Shown: positions 34,682-39,764, counted from the first letter of the stretch. The stretch is DNA of 64,000 nt from Candidatus Hydrogenedentota bacterium (GCA_034669905.1 JAXMOL010000005.1:11709-75708); one strand, 5' to 3'. Notes: generated from the sequence alone by a model not told the origin. Made by a program: numbers and translations.

Positions 34682-37195
34682 TTAACGCTGGGGGCGCCGT
34701 CCGAACGCAACCAGGGTCAACAGCGTAAGACTGAAGAGGAAGAACTCTTCTACTTTGTCGGCCAGGGTCTGTGCAACGCCCTGTTTCGAGAGCGCGCAAC
34801 CCGGCGTCGTTACTTCGACGCGGGCCTCAAGCTCTGCCTCCGACAGAAAGCCATCGCTGTTGGTGTCCAGCGCATCAAACTGGGTGGTTGTCACTGCGGA
34901 CAAGGACGCCATGGCCTCTGCCAATGACAGCTGCCCATCATTATCCACGTCCGCAACAGCGAACAGGTTCAAGAGCGCTTCGGCGGCGGCATCCAGCGTC
35001 ACTTCGCCTTCGCCTTCGCCTTCGCCTTCGCCTTCTCCTTCTCCTTCACCTTCACCTTCACCTTCACCTTCTTCTTCTCCTTCTCCTTCTCCTTCTCCTT
35101 CTCCTTCTCCTTCACCGCCGGGCGCACCATCGAAATAGACGCGATAGATATTCCCGTCGATGGTCGAATTGGCCGCAAAGTCTCCAACGCGAATATAGAC
35201 GTCCGACGTGAAAGCGTTTACAAAAGCCGTGTAATAAACACCGGTGGTGTCGGCGGGGTGCAAGGTTTCATACAACTCAAAGTTACCCACTTCCCCCCTT
35301 CCACGGAATCCGGTGTCGAAAATCTGCACGCCGTCATTCCCCGGATTGACGAATTGATAGGAATCGTTGTAACCTGCCAAGCCGCCCGTAAGAAAGGCCG
35401 TATCCGTATCCACCAGGGTTCCGTCCAGCTCCCACGCGAGCGTCCGGTTATTGTCGAAAGCACTCATAAGGTCGTTAACGGTAAAGGTACGCAACTCCGC
35501 CGTGTTGGCATCCATTGCATAAACGATTGACGTACGGCCCAGCACGCTCAGGAGGTTGGAGGAATAGCTGCCTGCCGGTTTTTGCACCACCACGCTCTTG
35601 TCCTGGAGCGCATACTTCGCCGACTTGCGAACCACGGGGTGGACCGCCTGCTTCTGGGCGCTCAGATCCAAAATGCGCAATTCGCTGGCTTCACCAAAGG
35701 CACCGACATCGAGGAGCACCAGGTTGGTGGTGAGGAAGGTCCCCGAAAAGTGACTGATGGATGCGACGAGTGCTTCTTCGGAATAGTCCACCGGATTGGC
35801 GGTGTCGAAAAGATAGAGGTTTCCACCGAAGCCTGCTCCGAGCAAGACATGCTGGTTATCCGGTGAAAGGGCCATGAATCCCGGGTCACCTGTGTAACCC
35901 GAAGCAATAACTTCGAAAACGCCCGACTCAGCGGCCGTTTCCTGGTAAATGGCATCGCCATTCCAGAGTAAGAGTCGCTGATCTGACAGTCCCAGACCGA
36001 CCAGGCCAAACGCGTTGGCGGCTACCTCGGGAAAACCCTCCTGTAAGACAAGTTCCGTCGTGGAAACTTCCCCCTCACCTTCTCCCTCGCCTTCACCACC
36101 GCGCGTACCTCCTTCACCCTCTCCTTCACCCTCTCCTTCGCCTTCACCCTCCCCTTCGCCTTCGCCCCCTTCCTCCAAGATCACGCGATAGACATCGCCA
36201 TTGATGGTGGAATTAGCCGCAAAATCACCGACACGAAGATTGGCGGTATCCGTGACGCCATTAAAAATAACGCTGTAGTAAAGCCCTGTCCCTTCAGCCG
36301 GCTGGAGTGCCTCGATGAACTCCAAGTTAGAGCCACTACCCGTACGCTGTTTGCTCCGTGTTCTTCCCAGGCCATCGAAGGCATAGACATTTACGGCATC
36401 ATTACCCGGATTGTAGAGGGTGCCGTCATCCGCGACGCCCGCTACGCCCCCGGTAAGCACGGCTTCATCGGCACTAACGGGAGTTCCGGCCGTCCAGACC
36501 AGCGTGCTGTTGGTGCTGTAGGCCGTGATGAAATCGCTCGGCAGGAAAGCACGCAATTCGGCCGTGTTAGCATCCATCACCAGAATATAGTCCGTGCTTC
36601 CGGGCGCGTAGCCCAAGGTGGCCGAGTAACTGCCCTCCGGTTTCACCAACACGGTCGCTTTGTCCACCGTGGGCTTCTTTAACACGGATACCGGACGGGC
36701 CTTGTTGGCGCTCAGGTCGAGGACCACCAATTCACTGGGTTCGCCAAACACCCCCACATCCAGCAGGACCAAGTCATTGTTCAAATACAACCCATCGAAG
36801 TGCCCCATGGTGGCCACCAGCGCGGAGGCTTCATAGTCAATCGGCGTGTGGGTATCAAGCACATAGAGATTGCCACTGAAACCCGCGCCAAGCAGGGCAA
36901 AGCGCCCGCCCGGTGCCATGGCGATGAAGGCCGGGTCTCCCACGTAGCCCGTGGCGATCGCATCGAAACTATCGGCATCCACCTCAGACTGAAGGTAAAC
37001 CGTGTTGCCATTCCAGACGAGGAGACGTCCATCGGGCAAGGCATCACCAACCACGCCGAAAGCATTCGCATCGGCCTGTGGAAAGTTCTCATATTGCACG
37101 AAGGTGGCCGTCATTGCAGGGACCGCCCCCAGCAAACAGAGCCATACACACGCCCACCGTAATCCCGTTGTGATTTTCACGAACACATTCTCCAT
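34682..37195 (-). CDS. Secreted (GE)n-repeat protein with internal module duplication, an EF-hand/dockerin-like Ca-binding loop pair and a C-terminal Cys-TM-basic anchor. Paralog A.
   Basis: Signal peptide 'LRWACVWLCLLGAVPAMTA'. Two homologous ~330-aa modules ('VWNGNTVYLQSEVDADSFDAIATGYVGDPAFIAMAPGG' and 'LWNGDAIYQETAAESGVFEVIASGYTGDPGFMALSPDN'), each followed by an acidic GE tract ('GEGEGEGEGEGEGEGG', 'GEGEGEGEGEGEEEGEGEGEGEGEGEGEGEGEGE'). 'DVDNDGQLSLAEA' plus 'DTNSDGFLSEAELEA'. C-terminus 'TPGCALSKQ...FFLFSLTLLTLVAFGRRPQR'. Confidence 0.7.
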   Translation of the reverse strand: MENVFVKITTGLRWACVWLCLLGAVPAMTATFVQYENFPQADANAFGVVGDALPDGRLLVWNGNTVYLQSEVDADSFDAIATGYVGDPAFIAMAPGGRFALLGAGFSGNLYVLDTHTPIDYEASALVATMGHFDGLYLNNDLVLLDVGVFGEPSELVVLDLSANKARPVSVLKKPTVDKATVLVKPEGSYSATLGYAPGSTDYILVMDANTAELRAFLPSDFITAYSTNSTLVWTAGTPVSADEAVLTGGVAGVADDGTLYNPGNDAVNVYAFDGLGRTRSKQRTGSGSNLEFIEALQPAEGTGLYYSVIFNGVTDTANLRVGDFAANSTINGDVYRVILEEGGEGEGEGEGEGEGEGEGEGGTRGGEGEGEGEGEVSTTELVLQEGFPEVAANAFGLVGLGLSDQRLLLWNGDAIYQETAAESGVFEVIASGYTGDPGFMALSPDNQHVLLGAGFGGNLYLFDTANPVDYSEEALVASISHFSGTFLTTNLVLLDVGAFGEASELRILDLSAQKQAVHPVVRKSAKYALQDKSVVVQKPAGSYSSNLLSVLGRTSIVYAMDANTAELRTFTVNDLMSAFDNNRTLAWELDGTLVDTDTAFLTGGLAGYNDSYQFVNPGNDGVQIFDTGFRGRGEVGNFELYETLHPADTTGVYYTAFVNAFTSDVYIRVGDFAANSTIDGNIYRVYFDGAPGGEGEGEGEGEGEGEEEGEGEGEGEGEGEGEGEGEGEGEVTLDAAAEALLNLFAVADVDNDGQLSLAEAMASLSAVTTTQFDALDTNSDGFLSEAELEARVEVTTPGCALSKQGVAQTLADKVEEFFLFSLTLLTLVAFGRRPQR

Positions 37196-39764: not shown

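Follow-up and report, generated by a model that had tools for sequence, protein, structure and literature searches.

The subject of this analysis is a pair of adjacent genes, here called A and B, in a 64-kb stretch of DNA (the window) from Candidatus Hydrogenedentota bacterium; all positions are counted from the first letter of the window. In the reading that we favor, and to which we give a probability of about one half, A and B are Sec-exported, twin-propeller envelope proteins that are tethered by their C termini and combine a stalk tunable by slippage, an EF-hand pair, and a portable cysteine anchor module. The two genes, arranged head to tail, are both on the minus strand and, as an original prediction made from the DNA alone had stated, encode tandem paralogs, with 56% identity across 692 aligned residues. 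Both open reading frames (ORFs) encode 837 residues, where lengths of 837 and 838 had been given. The gene pair and the signal that follows it are laid out as follows.

37251-39764, minus strand: gene B, 837 amino acids (aa) counted from the ATG, with a signal peptide, propeller B1, (GE)6, propeller B2, a (GE)29 stalk, an EF-hand pair, and the Cys tail (based on the ORF list, the identity to A, and module matches).
34682-37195, minus strand: gene A, 837 aa, with a signal peptide, propeller A1, (GE)9-GTRG-(GE)5, propeller A2, a (GE)7-E-(GE)11 stalk, an EF-hand pair, and the Cys tail (based on the ORF list, the identity to B, and module matches).
34626-34659, minus strand: terminator-like hairpin with a 13-bp stem (9 G-C pairs) followed by TTTGTTT, 23 nucleotides past the stop codon of gene A.

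The position of the hairpin after gene A suggests that B-A is a transcription unit of its own. The N termini of both proteins read as putative Sec-type signal peptides: a basic n-region precedes a hydrophobic core and an MTA or LSA end, and a lipobox is absent. Each protein has two cysteines in the signal peptide and one in the tail (C800 in A, C804 in B), which leaves a single cysteine in the mature chain.

A profile built from the four internal modules of A and B located the copies by hmmsearch. The internal duplication of each protein that had been predicted was recovered by these matches, with modules of about 315 rather than about 330 aa and mutual identities of 45 to 65%.

36164-37117, minus strand: propeller module A1 (residues 27-344), a six-bladed beta-propeller.
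35120-36067, minus strand: propeller module A2 (residues 377-692), found by hmmsearch with the module profile; 50% identity to A1.
38745-39698, minus strand: propeller module B1 (residues 23-340), module-profile match; 65% identity to A1.
37737-38699, minus strand: propeller module B2 (residues 356-676), module-profile match; 53% identity to A2.

The predicted fold of the module superimposes on solved six-bladed propellers. Sequence identity to six-bladed propellers of the NHL, SMP-30/gluconolactonase/LRE, PAL, and AA12 class is only 6 to 15%, with no common active site established. None of the modules of A and B matched a Pfam family; the Pfam matches to TrAA12 and Trypan_PARP are located on the Gly-Glu (GE) tracts and were discarded as low-complexity artifacts.

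Few relatives of these proteins are present in protein databases. A scan for related loci, which covered one genome per species and used a 5-sequence module alignment (a 17-sequence version was too diverse), returned 34 loci, most of them labeled Candidatus Hydrogenedentota and about eight labeled Nitrospirales or Nitrospiraceae. Three loci are close to the window (84 to 98% nucleotide identity), namely, L002 (GCA_041166445.1), L003, and L038. The propeller genes share 91.6 to 93.8% DNA identity with L002, versus 84.4 to 87.2% for the flanking genes, which suggests stronger constraint or recent exchange.

Each propeller module is followed by a GE tract, as had been predicted; the longest pure run (58 residues) exceeds the 46 residues that had been given as the maximum. 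Counted in units, the pure GE runs measure 9+5 and 7+11 in A, versus 6 and 29 in B. The hexanucleotide microsatellites proposed to encode them were recovered by Tandem Repeats Finder as period-6 arrays at 35002-35113, 36067-36167, and 37559-37727, with 92 to 96% matches.

37560-37733, minus strand: stalk tract of B, (GE)29, with 9 GGAGAA and then 10 GGTGAA among its hexamer runs.
38706-38741, minus strand: linker between the propellers of B, (GE)6, with scrambled codons.
35003-35116, minus strand: stalk tract of A, (GE)7-E-(GE)11, with runs of 6 GGAGAA and 5 GGCGAA.
36068-36166, minus strand: linker between the propellers of A, (GE)9-GTRG-(GE)5, with scrambled codons; 7 and 5 units in the L002 ortholog.

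Tract lengths vary between relatives and stay in frame, as had been claimed for the copies. For the B stalk, 29 units in the window compare with only 4 in L002, for the B linker, 6 with 7 in L003, and for the first run of the A linker, 9 with 7 in L002; across the family, stalks range from 4 to 39 units. With runs of 9 and 10 identical hexamers and in-frame differences in copy number, seen in relatives that are short-read metagenome-assembled genomes (MAGs), the tracts qualify as slippage-prone coding microsatellites. The contrast between identical-hexamer runs in the stalks and scrambled codons in the linkers indicates that only the stalk tracts look recently expanded by slippage. Together, the tract variation and the identical-hexamer runs support the view that the (GE)n stalk changes its length in whole hexamers by slippage. 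In the same genomes, a (GE)n stalk also stands before the CFI-box tail of unrelated passengers, which makes the stalk a general device in the phylum.

A literature search returned no description of a bacterial Gly-Glu repeat stalk of this kind; most of the papers that it turned up name the Glu-Gly repeat of eukaryotic RPGR ORF15. That repeat is likewise an alternating Glu/Gly low-complexity tract encoded by purine-rich repeats, but it belongs to a cytoplasmic protein and is a substrate of glutamylation, and the likeness is one of composition only. In overall logic, A and B recall the staphylococcal ClfA/Sdr LPXTG proteins, which carry a signal peptide, one or more binding domains, a Ser-Asp dipeptide stalk encoded by length-variable short DNA repeats, and a C-terminal signal whose helix is preceded by a spacer. 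Those proteins differ in being Gram-positive, anchored to the wall by sortase, and built with Ser-Asp instead of Gly-Glu, whereas A and B have no LPXTG motif.

Between the stalk and the tail, each protein has two DxDxDG loops that fit the canonical 12-residue EF-hand loop (D1, D/N3, D5, G6, L8, E12), with loop starts 28 residues apart.

34832-34951, minus strand: EF-hand pair of A (residues 749-788), loops DVDNDGQLSLAE and DTNSDGFLSEAE; matches above the Pfam cut-offs to EF-hand_5 (29.2 bits), EF-hand_1 (27.6), and EF-hand_6 (26.1).
37389-37508, minus strand: EF-hand pair of B (residues 753-792), loops DVDSDGRLSLVE and DQDSDGFLTQAE; canonical loops, with the Pfam EF-hand families just under cut-off (22.1).

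Two canonical loops in each protein and the Pfam match above cut-off in A identify the segment as an EF-hand pair. NCBIfam gave sub-threshold similarity only, to the EF-hand proteins XopAW and lanmodulin.

The last part of each protein is a tail with the three-part layout that had been predicted (PGC[AS]LS and a spacer, a hydrophobic segment, and a basic end), in which the hydrophobic segment is 14 to 15 residues long instead of the assumed 18 to 22.

34685-34822, minus strand: C-terminal tail of A, 46 aa; TTPGC(800)ALS, a 17-aa spacer, FFLFSLTLLTLVAFG, RRPQR.
37254-37379, minus strand: C-terminal tail of B, 42 aa; PLPGC(804)SLS, a 13-aa spacer, LFLFGLTLLTLVTI, RNRGAQ.

The tail is not restricted to these two paralogs. 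The closer relatives of the window (loci L002, L004, L005, L006, L008, and L009 and protein P0001) share a [P/A/T]GC[A/S/T/P/N]L tail, always after a GE stalk and an EF-hand pair. Alignment of seven diverged tails revealed invariant G, C, L, and T residues, a recurring F-x-F...L-x-T pattern in the helix, and a spacer of 13 to 19 residues between the cysteine and the helix in all seven. The tail is conserved in about seven Hydrogenedentota lineages, is strictly C-terminal, and keeps its Gly-Cys invariant. It has the general layout of a sorting signal, i.e., an extreme C-terminal motif, a hydrophobic helix, and a basic cluster, the last being weak in P0001 and L009. A hidden Markov model (HMM) of the seven tails, run on 565 kb of DNA from the related loci, matched only C termini of this kind, and in the window only those of A and B.

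An exhaustive HMMER search with the 46-position tail profile against 1.84 billion representative proteins gave six proteins at an E value of ≤0.001, of which five were real (P0013, P0014, P0001, P0018, and P0017); the sixth, P0016, is a repetitive false positive. P0013 is a near-identical relative, and P0018 is a fragment with GE, the EF-hand pair, and the tail. P0017, encoded on a 1.9-kb metagenome contig, has a CARDB domain but neither a propeller nor a GE tract nor an EF-hand. It matches the tail profile at 37.5 bits (E value of 1.5e-4 against the 1.84 billion proteins) and ends in QGCSGSKTTVATTLENSFEEFFLFGTALFTMLTL..KTRT, with 17 of 33 residues identical to A when counted by eye. Its presence on this unrelated protein makes the tail a portable module, and the five real matches show that it is also very rare. 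The smaller searches added little: a word-indexed search with the EF-hand-plus-tail cassette returned only the near-identical relative, the product of a chimeric 921-bp contig, and an unrelated EF-hand protein; a search with the seven-tail profile found only P0013; and a pattern scan of metagenomes found a single 98%-identical fragment, L038. An AlphaFold2 model of the cassette, of low confidence, shows helix-loop-helix twice, a coil with the Gly-Cys, and one long helix that takes in the last part of the spacer along with the hydrophobic segment.

Two of these records deserve a separate remark. P0014 is the 179-aa product of the 921-bp ENA contig, in which a TRAP-type solute-binding N terminus (PF03480) is joined to the exact tail of A at ELEARVEV; an assembly chimera is a likelier explanation for it than a second passenger. 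Downstream of the CARDB gene of P0017, the product of L037 1513-1932 (plus strand) resembles a lipoprotein and has a PKD-like segment as well as an EF-hand pair of its own, and EF-hand pairs seem common on envelope proteins of these organisms.

No NCBIfam sorting-signal model matched the whole proteins or the isolated tails at an E value of ≤10, nor did any Pfam sorting model match the tail, which agrees with the earlier statement that the tail matches no recognized signal. Those without a match include MYXO-CTERM (TIGR03901, cut-off of ≥20 bits), PEP-CTERM (TIGR02595, ≥16 bits), and CFI-box-CTERM (NF041770, ≥40 bits). A positive control was available in the window itself, where the PEP-CTERM protein that had been predicted was confirmed at 62346-63080 (plus strand). 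It ends in NPVPEPATAALFGMGLLGAAIRRRMKK and reaches 22.5 bits with TIGR02595, above the cut-off of 16. Two subfamily models, PepA-like and FxDxF, stayed below their cut-offs, and the window encodes no exosortase.

The MYXO-, JDVT-, Synerg-, and CGP-CTERM signals share with the tails of A and B the extreme C-terminal position, the succession of motif, helix, and basic end, and an invariant cysteine, often after glycine. In all four, however, the Cys motif lies directly against the helix with no spacer, and a spacer is found only in LPXTG-type signals, whose processing enzyme is not of the intramembrane kind (Haft, bioRxiv 10.1101/2023.06.07.544157); the spacer of the present tails thus sets them apart, as do their few substrates compared with dozens for each known signal. 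The spacer and the failed HMM tests place the tail outside the known Cys-type signals, with which it shares only the tripartite layout and the invariant cysteine.

Analysis of full ORFs across the loci revealed one passenger family with differing C-terminal modules in the same position. Most single-propeller members have an [L/V]-P-x-x-G motif abutting the helix and an Arg cluster, and score 13 to 16 bits with IPTL-CTERM (TIGR04174; cut-off of 20.5). IPTL-CTERM and these LPxxG-helix-RRR tails resemble the tails of A and B in position, passenger family, helix, and Arg cluster, but they lack the Cys, the spacer, the EF-hands, and, as a rule, the GE stalk. Several other members end in CFI-box-CTERM (92 bits), e.g., the homologs P0005 and L006 11718-13364. 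Like the Cys tail, CFI-box-CTERM is borne by propeller proteins of this family, and its invariant Cys stands a good distance ahead of the C-terminal helix and the basic end; it differs in its length of about 70 aa, its GPCFIATAAYG motif, and a segment preceding the helix that looks folded. Homology between the two was rejected (hhalign probability of 0.4%), and a search of the available literature library found no paper naming CFI-box-CTERM. Further members carry WCC or GGC/GHGC, then 11 to 14 residues, a helix, and basic residues.

LPxxG-helix-Arg tails occur in L010-L036 (e.g., L013 9848-10996, L020 9869-10966, and L021 9890-10975) and look like a second unmodeled sorting-type signal in Hydrogenedentota and Nitrospirales-labeled MAGs. 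CFI-box-CTERM (92 bits) together with a (GE)n stalk is found on unrelated passengers encoded directly after the propeller gene in L006 (11718-13364), L008 (2358-4145), L013 (10642-12699), and L017 (3688-4947). In the window, the second propeller paralog fills the slot that the CFI-box gene holds elsewhere.

The gene order around the propeller gene is conserved across the phylum. A rhamnosidase-YkuD fusion and YdjC usually come first, and then the propeller protein, often followed by a further (GE)n protein that bears CFI-box-CTERM. Next in order are a polytopic membrane protein without annotation, a GH38-like protein of 1600 aa, and finally a CPBP-like and a PcRGLX-like protein. The rhamnosidase-YkuD, YdjC, GH38-like, and PcRGLX-like genes are syntenic irrespective of the type of tail. 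The distant homolog P0002 has no conserved gene context. It is this company of glycan genes that suggests a putative glycan-related role of the propellers.

These observations suggest the following scheme. A and B would be exported by Sec to the cell envelope, where their paired six-bladed propellers may bind or process a rhamnose/mannose-containing glycan, as the gene neighborhood hints. The propellers would sit on polyanionic, flexible (Gly-Glu)n linkers, with the EF-hand pair next to the membrane, and slippage in the stalk would vary, in hexamer units, how far they project. The last ~45 residues would act as a portable, lineage-restricted membrane tether, functionally equivalent to the IPTL-like LPxxG, CFI-box-CTERM, and WCC/GGC tails of the homologs. 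The 14- to 15-residue helix would stop transfer in the cytoplasmic membrane, leaving the basic end in the cytoplasm according to the positive-inside rule. The spacer, partly helical in the low-confidence model, would hold the invariant Gly-Cys shortly outside the bilayer, where the cysteine would most likely be a site of modification or cross-linking. We hold it to be an even bet that the tail is a permanent anchor of this kind, possibly with a disulfide or another modification at the cysteine; lipid attachment there is pure conjecture.

Several points weigh against this scheme. As a permanent span of a bacterial membrane, the hydrophobic helix is short; some members, such as P0001 with NAAKSS, have a weak basic end; and the conserved residues inside the helix hint at recognition by a partner protein, which would favor a processed signal. 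The topology, cleavage, and Cys chemistry of the tail are indirect inference, and the cassette model, with a predicted local distance difference test score (pLDDT) of 46, serves as a secondary-structure hint only. The propeller lacks any specific functional match. The tract comparisons rest on short-read MAGs, in which repeats may collapse or be masked: L002 shows N in place of two orthologous tracts, and the contigs of L003 and L038 break at or close to repeats.

The best placed of the alternatives is that of the original prediction, namely, that the tail is a new cleaved signal of the Cys class. A dedicated enzyme, with its gene elsewhere, would cut off the helix and link the Cys region to a lipid or to a component of the envelope, after which the protein would move to the surface. 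We regard this view as possible, if somewhat unlikely. The tripartite extreme C terminus, in which the invariant Gly-Cys contains the only mature cysteine, the specific residues conserved within the helix, and the unrelated passenger are all in its favor, as are the other sorting-type tails (CFI-box-CTERM; LPxxG abutting the helix and an Arg cluster) at the same place in homologs. In three other tail types (P0002, P0003, P0004, and P0007), a cysteine likewise stands 11 to 14 residues before the helix. There is also a precedent, since MrtX has been shown experimentally to cleave MYXO-CTERM and this cleavage needs the MYXO-CTERM Cys residues (PMC11980579). The dedicated sortase-like enzyme that this explanation calls for was not recovered: Pfam found no exosortase, sortase, or rhombosortase in the larger ORFs of the window, and neither the window nor 565 kb of related loci contained a partner enzyme. 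Moreover, only two substrates occur in 64 kb and five real matches in 1.84 billion representatives, the conserved neighbors go with the propeller family whatever the tail type, and a 13- to 19-residue spacer is absent from every described intramembrane-processed signal (bioRxiv 10.1101/2023.06.07.544157).

A permanent anchor could also owe its cysteine to an intermolecular disulfide next to the membrane, giving covalent A-B heterodimers, or homodimers where there is one gene. Each mature chain has one Cys at the same juxtamembrane position in both paralogs, the genes are adjacent with a terminator-like hairpin after the second only, and general periplasmic oxidation would suffice, which fits the absence of a partner gene. 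We nevertheless find this proposal doubtful: it leaves the conserved helix residues and the fixed Gly-Cys-small-Leu context unexplained, and has to accommodate the single-gene loci L005, L006, L008, and L009, which carry the same tail.

Equally tentative is a broader proposal, in which the [P/A/T]GC-spacer-helix tail would belong to a Hydrogenedentota-specific class of Cys-dependent attachment signals, together with the WCC/GGC tails and perhaps CFI-box-CTERM. These would be processed outside the bilayer, 11 to 19 residues from the helix, by an unrecognized enzyme family, for which one candidate is the membrane protein encoded next to gene A.

33164-34351, minus strand: conserved polytopic membrane protein, given as context only; its synteny extends to L002, L006, and L008, and further copies are found in L013 and L017.

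This protein has no Pfam, NCBIfam, or PDB match. Its family (L006 13435-14577; L002, L008, L013, and L017) adjoins propeller and CFI-box genes whatever their tail type and has invariant GPxWLGS and M-A-x-P-x-K motifs, the latter being HPVKTE in the window, which may resemble motifs of GT-C/TMTC-type glycosyltransferases.

A partner of the CPBP family was also considered. In this proposal, the tail would be a myxosortase-type substrate, cleaved after modification of its Cys by the CPBP/Rce1-like protein encoded three genes downstream, as MrtX does with MYXO-CTERM.

27442-28329, minus strand: CPBP/Rce1-like protein; Pfam PF02517 at an E value of 2.5e-7, the myxosortase core model Mrt_core at 15 bits against a cut-off of 100; considered as a partner and rejected.

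The Rce1-like domain, its location on the same strand, the synteny with a tail-bearing gene in L002 and L006, and the assignment of all four known Cys-type signals to CPBP enzymes (bioRxiv 10.1101/2023.06.07.544157) made the protein a natural candidate. Compared with two PGAP-annotated CPBPs, however, both it and its L006 ortholog have GSEFGWRG for GEEFGWRG, WGLWF for WGLWH, and LGGIAG for HGALNA, so that the first catalytic Glu (motif 1), the His of motif 2, and both residues of motif 3 (His and Asn) are lost. In addition to this loss and the low Mrt_core score, a strong terminator-like hairpin stands directly after gene A, the gene comes after the GH38-like gene rather than after a tail-bearing gene, the tail-bearing gene of L005 sits in different surroundings and has no CPBP within 9 kb, and the MYXO-CTERM model fails to match the tail. 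We therefore ruled it out as the tail protease and consider such processing highly improbable; no intact CPBP-family myxosortase was found in the window and related loci. The protein looks like a conserved pseudo-protease, judging from its motifs. It has no sequence relative in the PDB, and its orthologs (L002 16388-17446 and L006 19475-20353), 50 to 88% identical across lineages, always follow a GH38-like gene.

Finally, the original prediction had likened the paired loops to dockerins as well as to EF-hands, and two regularly spaced DxDxDG loops could in principle dock a protein into a cohesin scaffold, but this hardly deserves credence, given that the Pfam matches of A and B at an E value of ≤10 include EF-hand families and no dockerin, that the closest NCBIfam similarities are EF-hand proteins, and that the membrane tail comes after the pair, which is thus not at the protein end.

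The remaining gene content of the window can be summarized briefly. The alpha-L-rhamnosidase at 41311-44241 (minus strand), recognized by the N, 6H, and C domains of Bac_rhamnosid, carries a fused YkuD L,D-transpeptidase domain at its C terminus (E value of 2.5e-20). This is an unusual pairing of a glycosidase with a peptidoglycan cross-linking domain, and it is kept in L002, L004, L006, L007, L009, L013, and L017. A giant exported protein of ~1600 aa at 28351-33363 (minus strand) has weak similarity to the C-terminal and middle domains of GH38 and is syntenic in L002, L006, L008, L013, and L025. Farther away are a 1571-aa protein with five BACON_2 domains and HYDIN/VesB-like Ig domains (3316-8031, plus strand) and a prepilin-type N-methylation/DUF1559 protein (12269-13285, minus strand); gene content of the BACON_2 and DUF1559 kind typifies organisms that live by degrading polysaccharides. 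The Hydrogenedentota belong to these degraders and are uncultured; to our knowledge, nothing is known of how they display envelope proteins.

The (GE)n stalk offers a clear-cut bacterial case of linker length being tuned by a coding hexanucleotide microsatellite. One passenger family swaps among at least four C-terminal anchor modules, three of which have no model or only sub-threshold matches, and the tail variants can serve as seeds for new sorting-signal HMMs and for a search for the enzyme by phylogenetic profiles. If the Cys tail is unprocessed, it is simply a lineage-specific membrane anchor; if it is processed, it would extend the paradigm of Cys-type sorting, itself of recent date, to a spacer-bearing design with a non-CPBP enzyme.

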